Source: Bacteroidia bacterium
Lineage (GTDB): Bacteria > Bacteroidota > Bacteroidia > B-17B0 > Aurantibacillaceae
NCBI GenBank assembly: GCA_018000995.1
Contig: JAGNIU010000007.1
Location: forward strand, 1-64,000
Direction: 5' to 3'
Length of the DNA stretch: 64,000 nt
Part shown: in pieces, positions 4,545-48,941 of the stretch
Layout: each line of letters starts with the position of its first letter
Numbering within the stretch: position 1 is the first letter of the stretch
Made by a program: the position numbers and the translations under genes
Notes under the pieces: generated by a model
Databases searched by the model: none
Seen by the model: only the letters and a program-made list of their open reading frames with translations
What the model was told of the DNA's origin: nothing

Positions 4545-4590
4545 AGTTTCTTTTTTAAAATTAATAAATCGGTGACTGAGCTTGTCGAAG

Positions 4591-4830
4591 TCAGAACTCT
4601 ATATCCCAAACGCTTTTGCGTTTTTTGTAAAATGATGGCTTGAAATAATTTTTGTGCTCTAAAATAAAAGCCATGATAAAATAAATAATAATCGGACTGC
4701 CAAAGGTGAAAAACGAAAGGTAAATAAAGTACATGCGAATGTTGGTCGTTTTAATTCCCAACTTTTTTCCCCACCATTCACAAACCCCGAAGGCTTGTTG
4801 TTCAAACCAGGTTATAATTCGTCTTACCAT
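4591..4830 (-). CDS. small PspC-domain membrane protein
   Basis: 79 aa; PspC-like N-terminus (GVCEWWGKKLGIKTTNIRMYFIYLSFFTFGSPIIIYFIMAFIL) with one TM. Confidence 0.55.
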   Translation of the reverse strand: MVRRIITWFEQQAFGVCEWWGKKLGIKTTNIRMYFIYLSFFTFGSPIIIYFIMAFILEHKNYFKPSFYKKRKSVWDIEF

Positions 4831-8177: not shown

Positions 8178-9707
8178 ATGAAGAAATTGATCCCCTTTTT
8201 ACTGGTATTTTTTGGTTTTCAAGCCGGTGCCCAGTACGCTTACGAGATAAAAATTAACGTTAAAGGCTTCCCCGATTCGGTAGCTTATCTTGCTAAATAC
8301 ACTTTTGGTAAGCAATATATTGTCGACACCTGCAAAACAGCATGGAAAGGAAATATTGTATTTAAAGGAAAAACTGAGTTGGATAAGGGAATGTATTTCT
8401 TAGCCAGTTTAGATAAAGAAGGAAAAGCCATTCACCGTTTCGATTTTGTTATTGATGACAGCTTTAAATTCGCGCTTACTTCTGATATGGCGGATTTACA
8501 ATACAATCTTAAAAGTGTAGGTTCAAAAGAGAATGAAGAATTTTTTAACTATGCGCGTTTCTATGTAGATAAAAACAAAGAATTTACCGGTTTAGCTCCT
8601 AAAACAAAGGGTATGAATAAAGCGGATTCAGCAAAGTTCATGCAAGACAAAGCAAAAACGTTTACCGAAGAGGTTGTAAAATTTGAAGCCGATTTTATTA
8701 AGAAGAATGAAGGTACTTTTTTAGGCGCTTGGTTAAATTTAAGAACTGAAAAGGAAGCGAAAACTTACCCTGCTGGTTTAAAAAACAGAAATGACAGTAC
8801 TATGTACCGCTTTAATTATTATAAAAGTCATTATTGGGATGGTGTAGATTTTAAAGATGGTAGAATTATTCGTAATCAGTTTTTTGATTCGAGGTTGAAA
8901 AAATATTTTGAGCAAATAGTTAATCAATTAGGTCCGGATACAGTAGCAAATGAAATCGATAAAATTTTATCGCAATGCGAGCCGGGCACTGAGTTATTTA
9001 ATTTCTTGTTTGTTCATTTTATGGTGGAGTACGAAAATCCAAAATTGGTTGGCTTCGATAAAGTGTTTGTGATGTTGGTAGATAAATACATTCGTACCGG
9101 TAAATCAGGAAAAATTTACGATGAAAAAACAACTACAAAAATTGTTGAGAAAGCCGATATCATCAAACCTTTATTAATTGGTTCAGTGGCACCTGATTTA
9201 TATATGATTGATACGGTGAATGCGAAAATTGTAAATAAAATGGGTTTTGATACTGCCTCTACAAGCGAATCGATTACGAAACTGTATTATAAAAATATGG
9301 ATAAGCTAGCACCGCTTTACAAAACTCTATCATCGGTACAAGCTAAATACATTGTGTTGGTGTTTTGGGATGTAGATTGTAGTCATTGTGTGACTGAAAT
9401 CCCGAAACTACTAGAAATTTATCACGATTTAAGAAAGACTGTAGACGTAAAAGTATTTTCGGTTTATACAGTGTATGAATTTGATAAATGGAGGAAATAC
9501 ATCATCGACAAAAAATTGGATTTCATAAATGTATATGACCCGGTTCATATAAATAATATAAAAACCAAATACGATATTTTCTCAACTCCAAAAGTGTATT
9601 TACTCGATAAAAACAAAATCATAAAGTCGAAACACATGCCGGTAGAAAAAATTACAGATTTAATAAAAGCGTTTGAAGAAGAAGAAAAGGCAAAGAAGCC
9701 AAAGTAA
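8178..9707 (+). CDS. DUF-domain + TlpA-like thioredoxin-fold thiol:disulfide oxidoreductase
   Basis: 509 aa; signal peptide; C-terminal thioredoxin fold with CxxC (VLVFWDVDCSHCV); tandem paralog of next gene. Confidence 0.65.
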   Translation: MKKLIPFLLVFFGFQAGAQYAYEIKINVKGFPDSVAYLAKYTFGKQYIVDTCKTAWKGNIVFKGKTELDKGMYFLASLDKEGKAIHRFDFVIDDSFKFALTSDMADLQYNLKSVGSKENEEFFNYARFYVDKNKEFTGLAPKTKGMNKADSAKFMQDKAKTFTEEVVKFEADFIKKNEGTFLGAWLNLRTEKEAKTYPAGLKNRNDSTMYRFNYYKSHYWDGVDFKDGRIIRNQFFDSRLKKYFEQIVNQLGPDTVANEIDKILSQCEPGTELFNFLFVHFMVEYENPKLVGFDKVFVMLVDKYIRTGKSGKIYDEKTTTKIVEKADIIKPLLIGSVAPDLYMIDTVNAKIVNKMGFDTASTSESITKLYYKNMDKLAPLYKTLSSVQAKYIVLVFWDVDCSHCVTEIPKLLEIYHDLRKTVDVKVFSVYTVYEFDKWRKYIIDKKLDFINVYDPVHINNIKTKYDIFSTPKVYLLDKNKIIKSKHMPVEKITDLIKAFEEEEKAKKPK

Positions 9708-9759: not shown

Positions 9760-11262
9760 ATGAAAAAACTAGCAGTACTATTTTGTTTATTAACCGGAAC
9801 TTTAAGTTATTCTCAGGGCGGTTACGATATTAAAATTAATATTAAAGGTCTTAAAGACACAATGGTGTTTTTAGCGAAGTATAATTTTGATAAACAATAT
9901 ATTGTAGATACTTGTAAAAAAGTAATAAAGGGCAATGTTGTCTTCAAAGGGAAAAAGGATTTGGATAAAGGGGTTTACTTTTTGGTAAGTCAGGAAAAAA
10001 TAAGATACTTCGATTTTTTTGTAAACGAGAATACCAAACTTACCATCTCGAGTGATATGGCTGATATGGTGAATAGTTTAAAAGCTCCTGGCTCGAAAGA
10101 GAACGAGGATTTTTTTGGATACATTCAATTTATCACGAATAAAAACATTGAATTTGGCAAGGCAAAAGATCAAAGTAAAGGACTGAGCAAGCCCGATTCA
10201 ATTAAGTTCATGAGCGACAAAATGAAAGCGTTAAATGAAGCGGTTCTAAAATTTGACACCGATTATTTAAAGGCACACAAAGGACAATTGCTAGGGGATG
10301 TATTAAATTTAAAAACAGATAAAGAATTAAAAGATGTGCCTAAGGCAAGTAACGGTCGACCCGATAGCGTTGCTCAATACAAATACTATAAAGCACATTT
10401 TTGGGATGATGTGAATTTCAAGGATGACCGTTTATTGCGCACACCATTTTTCGCGGATAGAGTGAAGCGTTATTTTGACAGAGTAATTCTTCAAGTACCG
10501 GATACTATTTCGGTGGAGATTGATCGTATGATGAATCAGTGCGTACCGGGTAGCGACATGTACAAGTTTTTATTAGCCTATTTTATGCCAACCTACGAGC
10601 AAAGTAAAATTATGGGCTTCGATAGAGTATTCTGTAATTTGGTAGATAAATATGTGCGTACCGGTTTAGCAAAAGGCGTTTATGATGAGAAGACATCAGA
10701 AAAAATTATTGAACGCGTAGATATTTTGAAACCATTATTATTGGGTTCGCAAGCACCAGATTTATTAATGATTGATACAACTAATTCGAAAGCCGTAAAT
10801 AAAATGGGTTTTGATACAGCAAAAACAAGTCAAACCGTTACGAAGCTGTATTACGATAACGCACAAAAATTAACGTCCCTGTTTACCACTTTATATGGTG
10901 TTAAAGCAAAATATACCGTATTAGTATTTTGGGATGTAGATTGTGGACATTGTAAAACCGAAATGCCGAAGTTAGTAGATGCTTATAAAGCATTGAAGAA
11001 GAAGTTCGACGTAAAAGTATTTTGTGTGTATACGCAGCACGAATACGATAAATGGCGCAAATATTTAATTGAAAATAATCTTGGCGACTTTATAAATGTT
11101 TGGGACCCTGTTCATATCAATAACATTAAAACCAAGTATGATATTTTCTCAACGCCCGTAATTTATTTATTGGATAAAGATAAAATCATAAAAGCCAAAC
11201 GACTTTCGGTGGAGCAAGTGCCTGAGCTTATTAAAGCTTTAGATGCTCAGGAGAAAAAATAA
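9760..11262 (+). CDS. DUF-domain + TlpA-like thioredoxin-fold protein (paralog of 8178..9707)
   Basis: 500 aa; collinear with upstream paralog (YIVDTCK, HFMVEYE/YFMPTYE, FWDVDCGHC, KYDIFSTP). Confidence 0.65.
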   Translation: MKKLAVLFCLLTGTLSYSQGGYDIKINIKGLKDTMVFLAKYNFDKQYIVDTCKKVIKGNVVFKGKKDLDKGVYFLVSQEKIRYFDFFVNENTKLTISSDMADMVNSLKAPGSKENEDFFGYIQFITNKNIEFGKAKDQSKGLSKPDSIKFMSDKMKALNEAVLKFDTDYLKAHKGQLLGDVLNLKTDKELKDVPKASNGRPDSVAQYKYYKAHFWDDVNFKDDRLLRTPFFADRVKRYFDRVILQVPDTISVEIDRMMNQCVPGSDMYKFLLAYFMPTYEQSKIMGFDRVFCNLVDKYVRTGLAKGVYDEKTSEKIIERVDILKPLLLGSQAPDLLMIDTTNSKAVNKMGFDTAKTSQTVTKLYYDNAQKLTSLFTTLYGVKAKYTVLVFWDVDCGHCKTEMPKLVDAYKALKKKFDVKVFCVYTQHEYDKWRKYLIENNLGDFINVWDPVHINNIKTKYDIFSTPVIYLLDKDKIIKAKRLSVEQVPELIKALDAQEKK

Positions 11263-23212: not shown

Positions 23213-23396
23213 AGGGAGAGAGGAGTTGAGTTTTAAACCTTCTGCAATCTAACCCCTCTAACATCCGCCTTTGGCGGATTAGGCTTTCTCCCCTTAAAAA
23301 AGGGGAGAAGTTTTTTTTGGAGTACGAATAAAATTCTCCCCCTTTTTTAAGGGGGAGTACCCGCAGGGGGAGGGGGTTAGTTTTTGAACTCAACCT
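23213..23396. repeat. GC-rich nested palindromic intergenic element (about 185 bp) with C5TT..AAG5 hairpins
   Basis: Outer imperfect IR ggagttgagtttt / aaaactcaacc; inner hairpins atccgcctttggcggat, ctccccttaaaaaaggggag, ctcccccttttttaagggggag; overlaps last codons and stop of GNAT gene. Confidence 0.65.
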
Positions 23397-25111: not shown

Positions 25112-26071
25112 TTAGCAATAGCGTGCGTTATAAATGAACCAGATATTTAATACAAGATAAATAATTATTAGCAGATTGGAAGCGATTTTATCAAAACGCT
25201 GCATTTCTTCCACTTTATTTTTTTTAAGGAGTGATAAAGAAAATGCAGAACAAATCACAATAGCGAGGATAAAAAGCAAGGCCAACCCGTGAAGTGTGTC
25301 CACTAAGGTAAATGTAGTTGACTCCGGCAAGGCAGAATCCACAACATACTTATTACCAATAACACCAAATAAGGAACCAATGCTTAAACCAAAACGCGAT
25401 TCAATGCTATCACGGTGAATGAAGAAACACAGGAACGATAAAAGAACAGAAATAAACATTCCAATAAATAATTTAAGAAATAGCCACCAGGAATCTCTTT
25501 CGATGCCAATCTGCATTTTAAAGGCGCTGAATTTAGATTGAGGTTTTGCTAAGTCTTCATCTCCAAAACCGGTTTCATATTTTTTTTCGTAAGTAGTAAT
25601 ATTAAAGCTATCCGTAATAACACGCCAACCGGAAAGTGTCCATTTAGAATAATGTTGACCAACAGTATCTTCAACAAAAACTAAAGCATCTGAATCGTAT
25701 TGGGAATTCTCTATAGTAAATCTTAGTTTCTGTTTATCGAATGGGAAGTTGTCGATTTTCCAGGAGTCGCGCATAACACATTGCAGTTTCATCATCATGT
25801 AAATTCTGCCATCATCTAAAGTATCAATGGTGTAAAAAGATTTATCCACTTCTTTCGCCATTGGCACTTCCAAAAATTTAGAGAAATCAAATTCAACATT
25901 CCTGTATTTTAACCAAAGCCAAAGGTTAATAGTGTATTGTTTCTCTCTGAAATCAATATCGTGAATGCTATTGATATAAACACCAACAGTAACGGTATCC
26001 GGATGTTTAGCTTCTTTAGAGAAAGAGGATTGAAAAACGAATAGGAGTAAAAGAGAAAGTAATTTCTTCAT
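25112..26071 (-). CDS. prokaryotic pentameric ligand-gated ion channel (Cys-loop receptor family) homolog
   Basis: 319 aa; signal peptide; about 200-aa beta-rich ectodomain with VTVGVYINSIHDIDFREKQYTINLWLWL and FPFDKQKL (Cys-loop-equivalent motif); pre-M1 Arg; four TM helices with M3-M4 loop; size matches GLIC/ELIC. Confidence 0.7.
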   Translation of the reverse strand: MKKLLSLLLLFVFQSSFSKEAKHPDTVTVGVYINSIHDIDFREKQYTINLWLWLKYRNVEFDFSKFLEVPMAKEVDKSFYTIDTLDDGRIYMMMKLQCVMRDSWKIDNFPFDKQKLRFTIENSQYDSDALVFVEDTVGQHYSKWTLSGWRVITDSFNITTYEKKYETGFGDEDLAKPQSKFSAFKMQIGIERDSWWLFLKLFIGMFISVLLSFLCFFIHRDSIESRFGLSIGSLFGVIGNKYVVDSALPESTTFTLVDTLHGLALLFILAIVICSAFSLSLLKKNKVEEMQRFDKIASNLLIIIYLVLNIWFIYNARYC

Positions 26072-27692: not shown

Positions 27693-27781
27693 TTAATGTT
27701 TCTGGTTTAAGGTTTCGTGTTTCTGTTTTAAGAATTTTGCCTATGAATTAGAAGTATGAATTTATACTAGTTAACGGTTTG

Positions 27782-27888
27782 CGGCTTGGCGTTGTGCGGG
27801 TTTTCGGAGAAGAATTTGTCGGCAAGACAAATGCTTATTTGGAAACCTGCACTTCATTTTACTTGAATACCCGCATAACGCCAAGCCG
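27782..27888. repeat. GC-rich 20-bp inverted repeat (cggcttggcgttgtgcgggt / acccgcataacgccaagccg) with inner hairpin
   Basis: 20/21 complementary arms separated by about 67 bp containing atttgtcggcaagacaaat hairpin; lies just 3' of the OLD-like gene. Confidence 0.55.
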
Positions 27889-27901
27889 TTGTTATGCCCA
27901 G

Positions 27902-29674
27902 TTATTTAAATTTTACAATATCATCTGTCGTTATTCCTTGGTCTGAACTTAAAGAAACTTCAAAAGCTGGTAAAAAGTCTACAGAAGATTCAATAGTCAA
28001 TTTGAAAGTGCTTTTATTCCAATCTAATGTCTTTAAAGAAAATAATTGATCAATTTTTAACTCTTGATATTTTGAAATTTTCGACAATGCCTCTGTACTT
28101 GCTGGTCTTTCCTCTAAAATAATGGATTGAATTTTGGCCAACACTTTAATAATTTCACTTCGCATAAATTTCGTATTATCAAAAGTGTCAAATATTATAG
28201 ATTGAATAAAAGCTAATAGTGTGGCATATCGCTTCTCTACATCAGCTCTGTCCTCAGTTTTTAGCAATTCATATTCAATATCAAATAATTTAATTTTTTC
28301 CTTGTCATCATCAGGACTTACTGGTGTCGATTGATAAAATGTTTCTAAGGAACCTGTCGGAATAATAAAAAATCCAGCTTTAGACAATATGGATATGGAA
28401 AATGAAGTGGAATCAACAAGCAAATCAATTACGGGATCTAATTTCGAATTTTGCAGTATGGCTTTTGTTAAGGCAGGATATTTATTTATTAATTCTAAAG
28501 TTAAGCTTTTCGAATTATCTGTTTTCTTTTTAATTCTGTAAAGATGAGGATATATATTATTTCCCGAATCAGTTGTTTTAAAATGCGCATCATCTACTTT
28601 TATCAATTCTTCTAATAAATTCCCTAAATTATCTCTAATATTTTTGCTAACATAATCTTGAATATTTGTTGCTATTGCTGAAAGTTCTTTAATTACGATT
28701 GGATGATTATTAAATTTGTCTAATAATTTACTTTCAATTAAACAGTCTAAGTCGCCAATGTAAAACGAAGGTTTAGCAATTGCTTGACAGAGTAAATGTA
28801 GGGTTGAAAAGTCATCCTTTCCTCCAGTTTCTACAATACTAAAATCATTTCTACTGATGTCAATATCGCATTTTTCTAGGACTTTCTTAAAGATTACTTT
28901 GTCACGAAATCCCTCACAAAAAACTACACCTTTTGAATGAACTAATAGCCACTTTTCGGAGTCAAGTCTAAGCAAACTTTTCTCTAAGTGTATTTTTTGT
29001 CCAGGTGTTAAAGTTGTGAAATCAGGTTTTGTTCCACCTAACACTTGCGGGTCAGAAAAAAAAGTTGCTTGTTCTAATTCCTCAATCGACTCAGGGGCAA
29101 AGAATATCGGTGAATGAGTCGCCAACCAAAATTCAATATTTTTTTCTTTTATAAGTCGAAGCATTTCATTTTTTAAAAATCTTTGGGCTTCTGGATGTAA
29201 CGAAAGTTCTGGTTCGTCAATAAAATATTTTTTAGATAAGCCTGAATTGATAAATGTCAAAATTATTAGCAACTCTCTAAGACCAGAGCTTTCACCTTCA
29301 AAATCGTATCGAGGAATCGACACTGTCTCAAAAAAATCATTGTCAAGTCCAGACGTTACCTTAAAATTTTGTGTTCGTTCAATAATTTCTAAGGAAAAAT
29401 TACGGCCAAGCTTTCTCGATAATATTTGAAACACAGTATATCTCAGTTTTGCGTTGTCTCGCAATAACGACATTGCAACTTGGTCGGGATGGGTTTTACT
29501 ATATTGTAAAAATTGCGAAGTAAATTCTTTGGTTTGAGAATCATTAAACTGTTTAACGTTGTTTGTTCTTTGTTTCGGAACATAAAACCCTCTATTGTCT
29601 TCACAAAGCTTACTAAGGGCTCTTGTCTTTCCAGTTCCATTTGGTCCAACTAAATAATGGATGTTTTTTTTCAT
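27902..29674 (-). CDS. ABC-type ATPase fused to TOPRIM-like (OLD family / DUF4435-like) nuclease domain; candidate anti-phage defence protein
   Basis: 590 aa; Walker A GPNGTGKT, signature-like ESSGLRELL, Walker B YFIDEPELSLHP, H-loop LATHSP; then VVFCEGFRDK..VETGGKDDF..YIGDLDCLIESK (E..DxD TOPRIM-like); about 250-aa helical C-terminus. Confidence 0.6.
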   Translation of the reverse strand: MKKNIHYLVGPNGTGKTRALSKLCEDNRGFYVPKQRTNNVKQFNDSQTKEFTSQFLQYSKTHPDQVAMSLLRDNAKLRYTVFQILSRKLGRNFSLEIIERTQNFKVTSGLDNDFFETVSIPRYDFEGESSGLRELLIILTFINSGLSKKYFIDEPELSLHPEAQRFLKNEMLRLIKEKNIEFWLATHSPIFFAPESIEELEQATFFSDPQVLGGTKPDFTTLTPGQKIHLEKSLLRLDSEKWLLVHSKGVVFCEGFRDKVIFKKVLEKCDIDISRNDFSIVETGGKDDFSTLHLLCQAIAKPSFYIGDLDCLIESKLLDKFNNHPIVIKELSAIATNIQDYVSKNIRDNLGNLLEELIKVDDAHFKTTDSGNNIYPHLYRIKKKTDNSKSLTLELINKYPALTKAILQNSKLDPVIDLLVDSTSFSISILSKAGFFIIPTGSLETFYQSTPVSPDDDKEKIKLFDIEYELLKTEDRADVEKRYATLLAFIQSIIFDTFDNTKFMRSEIIKVLAKIQSIILEERPASTEALSKISKYQELKIDQLFSLKTLDWNKSTFKLTIESSVDFLPAFEVSLSSDQGITTDDIVKFK

Positions 29675-29785
29675 TTTATTGTCTGTCTATATAATTGGGC
29701 ATAACTAGTGGATAAGCGCCACAAACAAATATTTACAAACGGTTATAAATATTTAAAGTGCTTTCCAATAATAAATATACAAAAT

Positions 29786-31012
29786 TTACTCCTCCTTTGG
29801 TTGTAGCTTATGGATTTTTTTAGTTCCGGCGTACATTTCGAATTTAAAGAGGCGGCATTCGAGAGAGCCGTTGAAGAGTGTTATTTTACGGGTAGGGCGG
29901 AGGCCAATATATTTTGCAGCTTCTAAATTAGACGTTATAATCCAACAGGTCCAACCACTAAAATCTTTTTTAAGTTTGTCGCCAATTTGTTTGTAGAAGG
30001 AAGCAATGTCTTCGTGTTTCATCCGCTCATCGTAAGGCGGGTTCAATAACACAGTGCCCATTGGTTTGTCAACCTTCATATCAAAAAAGGATTTGCGGCT
30101 GAATTGTATAGCGTCATCCACTTTTGCAACGGCAACATTTATTTTTGCAACGTTTAAACTTTTATCGGATAAATCGTTCGCTACAATATTCGGCATGTCT
30201 TCTTTAATGCGGCTTATTGCAGATTCGTAAATGGTATCGTATAATTTCTCGTCGTAATTTTTCCAACGCATGAAACCAAATTCTTTTCTGAAAATTCCCG
30301 CAGGAATATTTCCGGCAAACAATGCGGCTTCAATAGCTAAAGTTCCACTACCACACATACCATCAATCAAAGGTAAATGCGGTTGCCATCCTGAGATGAG
30401 TACAATTCCAGCTGCTAAAACTTCTTTAATCGGTGCTTCAATAATATCTTCACGGTAACCGCGCTTGTATAAAATATCGCCACTGCTATCTAAACTCACA
30501 CTCACATCATCTTTAAAAATGTGAACATAAATACGAAGCGTCGGCGCTTTTAAATCCACACTCGGACGTAAATCACCACTTATCTCTCTGAATCTATCGC
30601 AAATCGCATCTTTGGTTTTTTGCTCAACATATAAACTATGCTGAAAAAATTCCGAATTCGGTACACCTTCAACAGCGAGTGTATCCGTCACCTTCATAAA
30701 ATCATCCCAAGGAAATTTTTTAATACCGTCGTATAATTCCTGATCGCTCGTTGCTTTGAATTTGTAAATTGGAATCAAAACACGCAAAGCCACACGTGAA
30801 CATAAATTCACTTTGTACATGTAACCGATATCACCCTTTACAGAAACACCACGTTTAAATGGTTCAATGTCTTTACCGCCTAAACGTAATAATTCAGCTG
30901 CCAATACTTCTTCGAGTCCGAAAAAGGTTGTCACCTTCATTTCAAAATCGCCGGTAGTATTAAAATCGAAGTTTATTTTTTTGGGAGCAAGGTTTAGGTC
31001 GGGGGTATCCAT
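29786..31012 (-). CDS. THUMP-domain class I SAM-dependent RNA (m2G) methyltransferase, RlmL/RlmK N-terminal-like
   Basis: 408 aa; THUMP region then DGMCGSGTLAIEAAL (motif I) and NPPYDERM (motif IV). Confidence 0.75.
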   Translation of the reverse strand: MDTPDLNLAPKKINFDFNTTGDFEMKVTTFFGLEEVLAAELLRLGGKDIEPFKRGVSVKGDIGYMYKVNLCSRVALRVLIPIYKFKATSDQELYDGIKKFPWDDFMKVTDTLAVEGVPNSEFFQHSLYVEQKTKDAICDRFREISGDLRPSVDLKAPTLRIYVHIFKDDVSVSLDSSGDILYKRGYREDIIEAPIKEVLAAGIVLISGWQPHLPLIDGMCGSGTLAIEAALFAGNIPAGIFRKEFGFMRWKNYDEKLYDTIYESAISRIKEDMPNIVANDLSDKSLNVAKINVAVAKVDDAIQFSRKSFFDMKVDKPMGTVLLNPPYDERMKHEDIASFYKQIGDKLKKDFSGWTCWIITSNLEAAKYIGLRPTRKITLFNGSLECRLFKFEMYAGTKKIHKLQPKEE

Positions 31013-32585: not shown

Positions 32586-32594
32586 TAGCGGCAC

Positions 32595-32657
32595 TTCGAC
32601 AAGCTCAGCGACCGCTTTGCTCGAGAGTAGTAATCCGGTGGCTGAGCTTGTCGAAGC
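32595..32657. repeat. palindromic unit of GCTGAGCTTGTCGAAGC repeat family (perfect 16-bp arms)
   Basis: cttcgacaagctcagc (32595-32610) and gctgagcttgtcgaagc (32641-32657) separated by 30 bp; between convergent genes. Confidence 0.7.
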
Positions 32658-33110: not shown

Positions 33111-33233
33111 GGACATCCCCCCGTCGGCGCCTTCGGCGGACGTCCCCCTTTGAAGGGGGAATGTGTTAGCGCTTAGGCATCGTGGTTATTCCCCCTTCGA
33201 AGGGGGACGTCACGCAGTGACGGGGGGATGTCC
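33111..33233. repeat. GC-rich nested palindromic element (123 bp) with C5-6TT..AAG5 hairpins
   Basis: Outer IR ggacatccccccgtc / gacggggggatgtcc; inner hairpins gtccccctttgaaggggga, ttcccccttcgaagggggac, gtcacgcagtgac. Confidence 0.7.
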
Positions 33234-48852: not shown

Positions 48853-48941
48853 CCCTGTTGGATTAGAACATCAAATTGAAAAAAATCCTACGGGGCTTCC
48901 CTGTTGGATTAGAGTATTAAATTTAAAAAAATCCTACAGGG
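48853..48941. promoter_or_regulatory. two tandem 43-bp imperfect palindromes in msbA-like/rbfA divergent intergenic region
   Basis: ccctgttggattag-N16-aaatcctacgggg (48853-48895) and ccctgttggattag-N16-aatcctacaggg (48899-48941); ends 8 bp before rbfA ATG. Confidence 0.5.

Follow-up and report, generated by a model that had tools for sequence, protein, structure and literature searches.

A predicted Class 1 OLD nuclease as the probable sole cargo of an integron-like cassette next to rlmL in a Bacteroidota genome

The OLD nucleases encoded by single genes are the least understood class of this family. Described examples of Class 1 OLD proteins are P2 Old, the OLD protein of Thermus scotoductus (TsOLD, PDB entry 6p74), the Vc OLD protein of Vibrio cholerae and YbjD of E. 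coli. Phage replication is blocked by Vc OLD, a nickase that depends on both of its active sites (PMC12392090), while Cran1 represents an archaeal OLD class that is not defensive (PMC12796447). The dimerization domain of the OLD ATPases is situated between the Walker A and the signature motif, and the TOPRIM domain of GajA, the Class 2 OLD protein of the Gabija system, has a helical insert (PMC10568477). With regard to gene capture, extrahelical bases are the main determinant of strand choice in the attC sites of integrons (PMC2727003), and the rAID-1 clusters of Bacteroidales consist of a 5' tyrosine recombinase of the XerD family followed by co-directional low-GC genes with repetitive, integron-like spacers (10.1101/471110).

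The window examined here, by which we mean the whole stretch of 64 kb, contained a gene for a protein of 590 amino acids. We consider it probable that this gene encodes a Class 1 OLD enzyme and is the sole cargo of an integron-like cassette that was moved by a tyrosine recombinase, the latter probably XerD-like. The open reading frame called on the window and the domains assigned to its product are as follows.

27902..29674, minus strand: open reading frame of 590 amino acids for a stand-alone OLD-family ATPase-TOPRIM protein (Pfam, PDB sequence and fold searches)
29075..29674, minus strand: compact ABC-type ATPase, amino acids 1 to 200 (AAA_15 alignment, invariant motifs)
28343..28936, minus strand: TOPRIM domain, amino acids 247 to 444 (Pfam, invariant residues, TsOLD alignment)
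27905..28342, minus strand: lineage-specific C-terminal module, amino acids 445 to 590

The initial annotation had described an ABC-type ATPase followed by a TOPRIM-like segment with an E..DxD signature, and the comparison with 28 homologs agreed with this description. The N-terminal ATPase motifs were retained without exception, including Walker A (GPNGTGKT, positions 10 to 17), a signature-like motif (ESSGLRE, 128 to 134), Walker B (IDEPE, 152 to 156), the LHP sequence and the H-loop (THSP, 186 to 189). Equally invariant were the TOPRIM residues FCEG (E254), D258, GG284-285 and DLD (308 to 310, with D308 and D310), which comprise the catalytic glutamate and the DxD motif of a C-terminal TOPRIM domain and lie in a region that could be aligned to positions 374 to 432 of TsOLD. 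Matches past the Pfam cut-offs were obtained for OLD-like_TOPRIM (PF20469, E = 5.7e-10 at positions 247 to 310), AAA_15 (4.7e-09) and AAA_21 (7.3e-09). The prediction that the protein belongs to the OLD family and not to the transporters was borne out by the Pfam, PDB and fold searches: a transporter, SMC or RecF protein was rejected because the ABC_tran model gave an E-value of only 0.2 and because OLD proteins were the only ones that aligned across both domains. We therefore classify the protein as an OLD-family ATPase-TOPRIM protein and predicted nuclease.

The overall fold resembled that of solved OLD proteins. TsOLD was the top match in the PDB sequence search and among the best structural matches, with an identity of only 13% to 19% in the structural alignments. 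GajA, which shares the ATPase-TOPRIM fold, gave the largest structurally aligned span of all matches (338 residues), and several GajA models in PADLOC matched from Walker B through the TOPRIM domain. The protein had also been likened to a fused PARIS system, with AriA and AriB in one polypeptide, which would cleave tRNA and not DNA. This we regard as extremely improbable, since the AriA matches were limited to the shared ABC core at positions 126 to 191 and no match to DUF4435/AriB was found in Pfam down to E = 1. Furthermore, positions 230 to 590, which contain the TOPRIM domain and the C-terminal part, matched only GajA, weakly (1.2e-4, PADLOC), the TOPRIM match in Pfam was to the OLD-like model, and the closest PDB relative was the Class 1 protein TsOLD.

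Compared to the described OLD proteins, the predicted architecture was unusual in three respects. The first concerns the ATPase, which lacked the dimerization domain that is inserted after Walker A and ahead of the signature motif in TsOLD and GajA. The distance from Walker A to Walker B was about 140 amino acids versus about 245 in TsOLD, i.e. about 105 fewer, and positions 36 to 191 of the protein aligned to positions 208 to 373 of the 374 positions in the AAA_15 profile, so that about 170 profile positions were left without a counterpart. Since the missing insertion of about 105 to 170 residues mediates dimerization in TsOLD and GajA, regulation may differ in the variant described here. The second is a helical insert of about 120 amino acids (positions 311 to 432) that interrupts the TOPRIM domain and, like the C-terminal module, distinguishes the protein from the Class 1 proteins. 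The insert was followed by a predicted strand at positions 435 to 437 and by the invariant residues G441 and E444, which we read as the putative last strand of the TOPRIM domain. The third is the module of about 145 residues at positions 445 to 590, predicted to fold into a helical bundle and a small four-stranded β unit, with no relatives recognizable outside the family; for the C-terminal 271 amino acids as a whole, relatives were found only within the protein's own small family. A helical tail of about 250 amino acids that had initially been left unassigned is without assignment in Pfam also here, but the stretch after the DxD motif includes the helical insert and the putative last TOPRIM strand.

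The protein is rare, with 46 matches in 5.8 billion sequences, and belongs to a small, divergent OLD subfamily centered on Bacteroidota. By homology, the N-terminal ABC-type ATPase would control a TOPRIM nuclease of the two-metal type at the C-terminus, and the putative enzyme would most likely have a protective function, in which the replicating DNA of phages is nicked or degraded, as has been demonstrated for other Class 1 OLD proteins. The C-terminal module may have taken on a role in oligomerization or sensing. A variant that lacks the dimerization insert and has a private C-terminal module would make it possible to test which parts of OLD proteins are needed for assembly and activation.

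None of the genes for the partners of multi-gene systems was located adjacent to the OLD gene. In the window, and likewise in ten further settings of homologs, no helicase related to UvrD, PcrA or Rep, as in the GajB component of Gabija, was encoded next to it, in agreement with the suggestion that a GajB-like partner is absent, nor was a reverse transcriptase or ncRNA of a retron, or AriB. The protein was assigned to Class 1 by context because of the absence of a helicase, reverse transcriptase or AriB partner. The neighbors differed in all ten of the further settings, which included a tyrosine integrase beside trmE, a restriction-modification (RM) system, an IS66 element, and a region with genes for DRT, RelA_SpoT/PLD and HepT-MNT. 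The OLD gene is thus a solo, mobile gene. No phage matches were identified, and the only plasmid matches were solo genes in Acinetobacter and Synechocystis with identities of about 23%, for which reason a phage or plasmid origin was rejected. A metagenome scan with the OLD alignment recovered at least 3 distant loci, with no additional cassettes among the matches listed. The proposal that the gene is part of a defense island could not be upheld: the neighboring genes in the window, for a lipoprotein and for NYN/OST-HTH, ligand-gated-channel-like, cupin-like, GyrI-like and GNAT proteins, gave no matches to defense models, and the window contains one cassette. The DNA-wide Rfam scan of the 64-kb window also produced no match.

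The sequence that follows the OLD gene on the minus strand and the boundary that precedes it contained the elements listed below.

27765..27903, minus strand: attC-like site with R'' box, GC-rich stem of 20 to 24 bp, variable loop, spacer CAAACC and R' GTTAAC (covariance model, covariation)
27891..27900, minus strand: R'' box TGGGCATAAC, overlapping the stop codon region (exact complement of the 5' boundary)
27865..27888, minus strand: 5' arm of the hairpin, L''-like (repeat search, covariation)
27782..27805, minus strand: 3' arm of the hairpin, L'-like (repeat search, covariation)
27770..27775, minus strand: R' core GTTAAC with the probable crossover G|TT
27775..29704, minus strand: putative cassette with a length of 1,930 bp, which begins with the TT of the 5' GTT core and ends with the G of the 3' GTT core
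29696..29705, minus strand: 5' boundary GTTATGCCCA, corresponding to the R' box rebuilt in the putative circle; the similarity to gene-less relatives ends after GTTA
29706..29785, minus strand: conserved spacer 3' of rlmL, ending ...GGCGCTTATCCACTA, common to loci L008 and L009 up to the junction
29786..31012, minus strand: RlmL-like rRNA methyltransferase gene, syntenic in relatives, anchor of the insertion site (profile search, synteny)

The GC-rich inverted repeat that had been noted after the gene was confirmed. Its arms of 24 nucleotides were 92% complementary and separated by 59 nucleotides, and the folding z-score was -5.0 for RNA and -5.5 and -6.9 for DNA. A 19-mer of the repeat occurred at these two places only, where 0.01 occurrences would be expected, and no further copies of the repeat were found in the 64-kb window. 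However, the repeat is not readily explained as an insertion scar, as had been suggested. When the arms of six sites were registered by hand, because a MAFFT alignment of all six misplaced the sites with long loops, compensatory changes were counted at 17 of the 20 stem positions, and 87% of the stem pairs were Watson-Crick pairs in register versus 22% to 33% in the controls with a shifted register. Four sites of similar length served to construct a covariance model, which identified the site in the window with a score of 124.5 bits (E = 7e-30), which was the only significant match on the cassette strand; the one other match in the window was to the same palindrome on the plus strand (24 bits, E = 0.0005). 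The model also recovered independent sites in loci L030 and L043 with scores of 108 to 118 bits. In addition, the R'' box TGGGCATAAC was the exact reverse complement of the 10-mer GTTATGCCCA at the 5' boundary. The inverted repeat is thus most likely a conserved and covarying attC-like recombination site of an integron-like cassette of 1.9 kb.

A similar organization was seen elsewhere. The same site layout was identified 3' of OLD homologs in unrelated contexts in L006 and L040, while the site was decayed or absent next to the homologs in L001, L004, L005 and L031 to L034. Cassettes with the same layout but with other cargo contained genes for DRT (L032), PD-DExK and PDC-S15 (L030) and HigBA (L043). 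The cargo in L040 also included an HNH gene, and a gene for a PemK toxin was located further along the same run of co-directional genes. The cassettes were delimited at G|TT, with a 5' end complementary to their own R'' box; the complement was exact over 10 bp in the window, L006, L009 and L040, and comprised 9 to 10 bp in L030, L032 and L043. A motif of about 25 nucleotides, GTTAnnnnnnAtTwtAAAAAGACa, was conserved at the 5' ends of the cassettes. A reading in which the hairpin is no more than a terminator or an mRNA-stabilizing element, the gene an ordinary one acquired by horizontal transfer and the match of the 10-mers a coincidence is in our view very improbable. The hairpin is indeed strong and located 2 to about 130 nucleotides beyond the stop codon, as would be expected, but it was not called in the terminator scan and has no T-run. 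Moreover, in at least 6 cassettes of differing sequence the outer boxes and the boundary 5' of the gene were exactly complementary, sites of the same family were located behind unrelated genes, and the similarity between genomes ended exactly at GTTA.

The last of these observations was made at the junction next to rlmL. The rRNA methyltransferase gene that had been predicted on the other side of the OLD gene was verified as an RlmL-like gene (RlmL_1st, THUMP and UPF0020 domains) located immediately upstream, and the gene order IspA-thioesterase-rlmL...112aa-GyrI-GNAT-MTase was conserved in six relatives. The OLD gene was present in none of the six, including the closest, as expected for an accessory gene next to a conserved one. 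L008 and L009 had the flank in common with the window up to ...CCACTA|GTTA and diverged directly beyond. At this junction, L009 contained a GmrSD gene (HEC-06, E = 6e-190), which was bracketed by GTTATAGGCA / TGCCTATAAC and also associated with a GC-rich hairpin of 20 bp and the sequence CAAAC-GTTAGT. The OLD cassette is thus replaced at the same base by another defense cassette, and close relatives differ in what occupies this one junction, an OLD nuclease in one case and in the other a GmrSD restriction enzyme, each on a cassette with a similar folded site. This makes the locus a clean natural case of defense-gene exchange at single-base resolution. The possibility that the region from 24.4 to 29.7 kb is an indel had been raised. 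Variation among the relatives was indeed seen from rlmL to the conserved gene for the 112-aa protein, but the OLD gene arrived as a unit of its own of 1,930 bp, with a GC content of 32.3% versus 34.9% for the window.

These data also bear on whether the protein could be a housekeeping ATPase involved in repairing DNA or in the cell cycle, similar to Cran1, which we consider quite improbable. Cran1 is a precedent for OLD-family proteins that are not defensive (PMC12796447), and the defense activity is deduced from homology. However, a housekeeping function is difficult to reconcile with a gene that is absent from all six of the syntenic relatives and rare in sequence collections, that moves on a cassette between unrelated contexts in which DRT, RM, toxin-antitoxin or integrase genes are found nearby, and that is exchanged for a GmrSD restriction gene in a sister genome. 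The gene immediately follows rlmL in the same orientation and may be expressed by read-through transcription.

In the mechanism that we propose, the hairpin would be the folded recombination site of the cassette, organized as R''-stem-loop-stem-R', and a tyrosine recombinase encoded elsewhere would have inserted the cassette, probably as a circle, at the G|TT core located 80 nucleotides 3' of rlmL. The recombinase would probably be XerD-like, of the type that heads related arrays. In the 64-kb window, tblastn searches with IntI1 and a Bacteroidota integrase as probes detected no gene for any recombinase. Truncated genes for XerD-like recombinases were located directly upstream of two arrays and in the same orientation, with a pseudogene in L040 to L042 and an open reading frame of 174 amino acids in L043, both of which were N-terminally truncated or pseudogenized. 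These fragments matched TIGR02249 on two stretches, to the exclusion of the IntI-specific insertion, with XerA/C/D scoring equally well.

An alternative to this mechanism is that the element is a true integron cassette, with the hairpin serving as the attC site for a canonical IntI encoded elsewhere in the genome, so that it would be a single attC site without an integrase of its own (SALIN), and that the XerD-like fragments are incidental. Similarities are numerous: an open reading frame followed by an imperfect palindrome with the layout R''-L''...L'-R', AAC/GTT cores, a G|TT crossover, an R'' box complementary to the 5' end of the cassette, a variable loop, and co-directional arrays of small open reading frames that include toxin-antitoxin genes and defense cargo (PMC2727003; 10.1101/2024.07.02.601686). 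Integrons have been reported in Bacteroidota and are known to carry defense cassettes (PMC8618304; 10.1101/2024.07.02.601686; 10.1101/2024.07.02.601719), and the bottom strand folded better in five of the six sites, albeit by just 0.4 to 4 kcal/mol. We nevertheless consider a true integron unlikely. The stem arms were of equal length with mismatches only, among them an A.C mismatch conserved at position 14 of the stem, which reads G.T on the opposite strand, whereas the L stem of an attC site has two or three extrahelical bases; the spacers were asymmetric (1 to 2 versus 4 to 6 nucleotides) and the R boxes comprised 10 bp. In the window, the cassette stood alone and was located at a chromosomal site and not at attI, and the 5' motif of about 25 nucleotides is foreign to classical cassettes. 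Searches of the window and of more than 40 loci gave no IntI integrase, and the recombinases at the heads of the arrays, the only ones located next to them, lacked the IntI-specific domain. Furthermore, integrons are very rare in the reference genomes of Bacteroidetes (10.1101/2022.02.28.482270).

A related arrangement, also described from the phylum Bacteroidota, is that of the rAID-1 clusters, whose defining features are a recombinase with an identity of 44% or more to BF9343_RS08045 and T6SS immunity genes as cargo. A comparable layout, with a 5' XerD-like recombinase, at least two co-directional low-GC genes and repetitive spacers, was observed in L040 to L042 and in L043. The recombinases examined here are truncated, however, and the cargo is of the anti-phage type (OLD, GmrSD/HEC-06, DRT, PDC-S15, nucleases and toxin-antitoxin systems), while the window contained a single cassette and no recombinase.

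Returning to a XerD-like recombinase as the probable agent, we tentatively raise the possibility that the cassettes represent a distinct integron-like capture system in environmental Bacteroidota. Such a system would be characterized by the 5' motif of about 25 nucleotides, a hairpin of about 140 nucleotides without extrahelical bases, the G|TT crossover, XerD-like recombinases without the IntI domain and mainly anti-phage cargo that is swapped at fixed chromosomal sites, among them the one behind rlmL. The OLD subfamily, without the dimerization insert in its ATPase and with its private C-terminal module, would be a nuclease adapted to cassettes that is assembled or triggered in a manner of its own. 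Should the recombinase be XerD-like and not IntI, integron-type gene capture and the storage of phage defenses would extend to a phylum with few classical integrons. A link to the rAID-1 arrays of the gut Bacteroidales would then be established as well, and the cassettes could serve as a practical guide to new defense genes in Bacteroidota metagenomes.

Neither the empty junction CCACTAG|TTAACTAGT (...GGCGCTTATCCACTAG|TTAACTAGTATAAATTC) nor the circular junction ...CAAACCG|TTATGCCCAATTAT (...GCCAAGCCGCAAACCG|TTATGCCCAATTATATAGAC) was found in the loci compared. The spacer on the rlmL side was considered as a degenerate attC site and dropped due to a weak consensus fold (-5 kcal/mol) without covariation. 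The DNA beyond the R' core was read as the chromosomal target, because it lacked the conserved 5' motif of the cassettes, and it was also noted that CCACTAGTTAACTAGT is the putative target sequence.

The minus-strand ORF at 27902..29674 encodes a protein of 590 amino acids, which the initial annotation had described as an OLD-type or fused PARIS (AriA-AriB)-like ATPase-TOPRIM nuclease rather than a transporter. In an alignment of 28 homologues with identities of 24% to 83%, the motifs of both domains were present and invariant: Walker A (G10, N12, G13, G15, K16), E128, G131 and E134 of the signature-like ESSGLRE, Walker B IDEPE (152-156), LHP and the H-loop THSP (186-189), followed in the second domain by E254, D258, G284-G285 and D308-L-D310. 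Among the Pfam profiles, OLD-like_TOPRIM matched aa 247-310 (5.7e-10) and, like AAA_15 and AAA_21, scored above its curated cut-off, whereas ABC_tran reached only E=0.2 and no DUF4435/AriB signal was found. A family profile searched against all PDB sequences identified the Thermus scotoductus Class 1 OLD nuclease 6p74 at 1.8e-19, with an alignment from Walker B through DxD; the PtuA and AriA ATPases came after it and were restricted to the ABC core. The best Foldseek matches of the AlphaFold model (pLDDT 88, pTM 0.77) were 6p74, GajA and the retron-Eco8 OLD, and the top PADLOC models were PtuA, AriA, Old and GajA at about 1e-13, with GajA as the sole, weak match when aa 230-590 were searched alone. 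Because of these PDB, Foldseek and PADLOC matches and the absence of DUF4435/AriB, we conclude that the protein is an OLD-family ATPase-TOPRIM enzyme; transporter, SMC/RecF and fused PARIS identities were rejected.

The dimerization domain of TsOLD and GajA is formed by an insertion in the ATPase (PMC10568477), of which the 590-aa protein has no recognizable counterpart. AAA_15 profile positions 208-373 of 374 cover aa 36-191, and the distance from Walker A to Walker B is about 140 amino acids versus about 245 in TsOLD, which indicates from sequence that the insertion is missing. In the alignment and the AlphaFold model, a helical segment of about 120 amino acids lies C-terminal to DxD, followed by a strand (435-437) with an invariant G441xxE444, which we read as the final TOPRIM strand, and then by helices and a small beta unit. 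When aa 320-590 were searched against 1.84 billion representative proteins, only 11 were matched, nine at E<=1e-14 and three weakly; the nine comprised three named family members and otherwise shorter proteins or fragments. The family is small, with 36 full-length relatives at E <= 1e-114 before the matches drop to 1e-18, mostly from Bacteroidota with a few Dehalococcoidia-like sequences. This OLD subfamily has a domain architecture that is new.

No relatives were found among the phages searched. Distant solo relatives (about 23% identity, aa 8-468) were found on small Acinetobacter and Synechocystis plasmids, namely Acinetobacter lwoffii pAVAci84 (L047, 3911-5773) and the 119-kb plasmid of Synechocystis 6803. 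Each of these small, mobilizable plasmids carries a solo gene ("AAA family ATPase", about 620 aa) with the same compact ATPase-TOPRIM layout; one of the two genes adjoins a BrnT toxin gene.

By analogy with P2 Old, TsOLD and Vc OLD (PMC10568477, PMC12392090), the ABC head would bind and hydrolyse ATP and in this way gate a TOPRIM nuclease of the two-metal type, which would nick or degrade phage DNA and so stop replication. E254, D258, D308, D310 and E444 form the candidate catalytic set, and K460, judging solely from its invariance, is a possible general acid or stabilizer. The private C-terminal module may stand in for the missing insert by providing oligomerization or a surface that senses the trigger. 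The gene may be expressed by read-through from rlmL, as first-position integron cassettes are.

The initial annotation had raised the possibility of an indel downstream of the rlmL-like gene. Among 24 loci fetched with the rlmL-like protein as anchor, the order IspA-thioesterase-(TPR)-rlmL ... 112-aa protein-GyrI-like-GNAT-methyltransferase was kept in 6 (L007, L009, L011, L012, L028 and L029; rlmL identity 80% to 98%). The OLD gene was absent from all 6, and the interval between rlmL and the 112-aa gene was different in each. The GC content of the OLD gene was 31.2% versus 34.9% in the surroundings, and that of the inferred cassette (27775..29704, minus strand) was the sixth lowest among 311 same-size windows. 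The flanking genes differed in all ten further homologue settings, none of which contained an adjacent helicase:

Behind ligA
Adhaeribacter, flanked by metabolic genes
Chryseobacterium, beside a tyrosine integrase and trmE
L006, between a divergent radical-SAM gene and uncharacterized genes
L031, immediately behind a dehydrogenase E1-type gene
Beside a methylase/NgoFVII-type restriction pair
Beside IS66
Immediately behind a gene with a faint HEPN/AbiU2 match (E 3e-5, below the Pfam cut-off)
L032, within a run of DRT, RelA_SpoT/PLD and HepT-MNT genes
L040, first in an array that includes HNH and PemK genes

The OLD gene is thus a mobile, solitary gene. Since none of its neighbours in the window matched a defence model, the label "defence island" given to the locus does not apply. 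The window also encodes a 319-aa protein (25112-26071, minus strand) that weakly matches Neur_chan_LBD (pentameric ligand-gated channel) and has transmembrane helices at its C-terminus. Its gene is flanked by the NYN/OST-HTH gene and the conserved 112-aa gene and is absent at the equivalent place in L009 and L028.

The GC-rich inverted repeat reported behind the gene is real, with arms of 24 nt that are 92% complementary (27782-27805 and 27865-27888), a hairpin fold that stands out from shuffled sequences (z -5.0 as RNA; -5.5 and -6.9 as DNA) and no further copies of the arm sequence in the window. The initial description of the locus was thus confirmed in these respects. The repeat contains no T-run and was not called by the terminator scan. 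The 10-mer GTTATGCCCA is located at 29696-29705 of the minus strand, 21 nt before the ATG, and its exact complement TGGGCATAAC begins 2 nt past the stop codon, so that the ORF is flanked at both ends by exact inverted 10-mers; TGGGCATAAC is followed by the hairpin, the spacer CAAACC and GTTAAC. The sequence behind rlmL is common to the window, L008 and L009 up to ...ATCCACTA|GTTA, past which L008 and L009 depart from the window and from one another. When the two flanks are joined, CCACTAG|TTAACTAGT is restored, with a perfect palindrome of 14 bp inside it. Because outer boxes and stem arms in the order R''-L''...L'-R' and a crossover at G|TT are hallmarks of integron cassettes (PMC2727003), the repeat is most likely a recombination site of a kind shared with other cassettes, and the readings as an insertion scar or a terminator were rejected.

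On the strand of the cassette, a covariance model based on four sites found exactly one site in the window (27765-27903, 124.5 bits); the same palindrome scored 24 bits on the plus strand (E 0.0005), and the best score elsewhere was 13 bits (E 0.27). Independent sites were recovered in L030 (108 and 51 bits), L043 (118 and 32 bits), L040 and L031. Other GC-rich intergenic palindromes in the window, of different sequence and all scoring <= 11 bits, do not match this model and may be REP-like elements or terminators. They lie at 33139-33211, 32594-32656 (related copy at 4566-4591), 23290-23354 and 48853-48941; examples are GACGTCCCCCTTTGAAGGGGGAAT, whose arms are 96% complementary, and a tandem pair of palindromic units of 43 nt each. 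A 158-nt direct repeat with 73% identity (9519-9676 and 11086-11243, 1,567 nt apart) probably derives from tandem paralogous genes.

In the sister genome L009, whose rlmL is 93% identical, a GmrSD cassette is located exactly at the OLD junction. It encodes a 555-aa GmrSD_N/GmrSD_C protein of the GmrSD restriction type (L009:11369-13036; PADLOC HEC-06, 6e-190). The first bases of this cassette are GTTATAGGCA, and its end consists of TGCCTATAAC, a GC-rich inverted repeat of 20 bp and CAAAC-GTTAGT. The same site architecture was found behind OLD homologues whose surroundings are unrelated (L006, L040-L042) and behind other cargo: a DRT reverse transcriptase in L032 (Drt6/Drt4, 2e-154), a PDC-S15 protein (2e-89) and a PD-(D/E)xK nuclease in L030, HNH in L040, with a PemK toxin gene further along the same co-directional run, and HigB/HigA as a pair in L043. 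The first 9 to 10 bases are, in most cassettes, the exact complement of the cassette's own R'' box. Single-gene OLD nucleases and integron-like arrays in Bacteroidales are already known, as are integron cassettes that carry defence genes (10.1101/2024.07.02.601686; 10.1101/2024.07.02.601719). New features are the explicit structure of this site family, the defence-type genes that it carries in environmental Bacteroidota, and the substitution, precise to the base, of GmrSD for OLD between sister genomes. The co-directional defence-type run at L032:3700-14000, with cassette sites between some genes, holds the DRT, a split RelA_SpoT-like gene, a PLD and helicase-associated-domain protein, an OLD homologue and a HepT/MNT pair.

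Across six sites, compensatory double changes occurred at 17 of 20 stem positions, and pairing was 87% Watson-Crick in register versus 22% to 33% when register-shifted. An A.C mismatch, which reads G.T on the complementary strand, was kept at stem position 14 in 5 of the 6 sites as registered; in the window, where the spacer is 1 nt longer, it is at position 13 (27877/27794). It may have a role in strand choice, by analogy with the extrahelical bases of attC. The cassette 5' ends share a motif of about 25 nt after the GTT core, GTTAnnnnnnAtTwtAAAAAGACa, with copies at these and other positions:

Window 29680-29705, minus strand
L009:13227-13250
L032:6806-6830
L043:2505-2530

To our knowledge, classical integron cassettes do not carry this motif, which might serve the recombinase as a second binding site or act as an expression signal. 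The motif is missing from the sequence past the window's site (27765-27903), as expected if that sequence is the chromosomal target.

No recombinase gene was found in the window. In L040-L042 the OLD homologue forms the first cassette, and about 100 nt upstream of it, in the same orientation, lies a pseudogenized C-terminal fragment of a tyrosine recombinase. Its L043 counterpart, of 174 aa, comes before an array in which the model has two hits. A co-directional array headed by a recombinase and containing integron-like intergenic repeats is the arrangement described for rAID-1 clusters of Bacteroidales (10.1101/471110). The fragments score about equally against XerA, XerC, XerD and "integron integrase", and the integron-integrase profile matches them in two stretches, leaving out the IntI-specific insertion. 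The hairpin sites, unlike attC, are without extrahelical bases; in 5 of 6 sites the non-coding strand has only a slight folding advantage. For these reasons we call the element integron-like; the favoured agent is a trans-acting recombinase of the XerD-like kind, and the main rival is a canonical IntI.

The best 120 database relatives of the fragments (P0047-P0166) were all 82 to 202 amino acids long. This XerD-like family is seen almost solely as short forms that begin near the start of the catalytic domain, including genes on contigs of 0.1 to 8 Mb, and may represent either recurrent truncations or functional catalytic-domain-only proteins. Such forms head the cassette arrays at L040:9547-9880 and L043:358-882, the latter fused behind a truncated AEP-TOTE gene.
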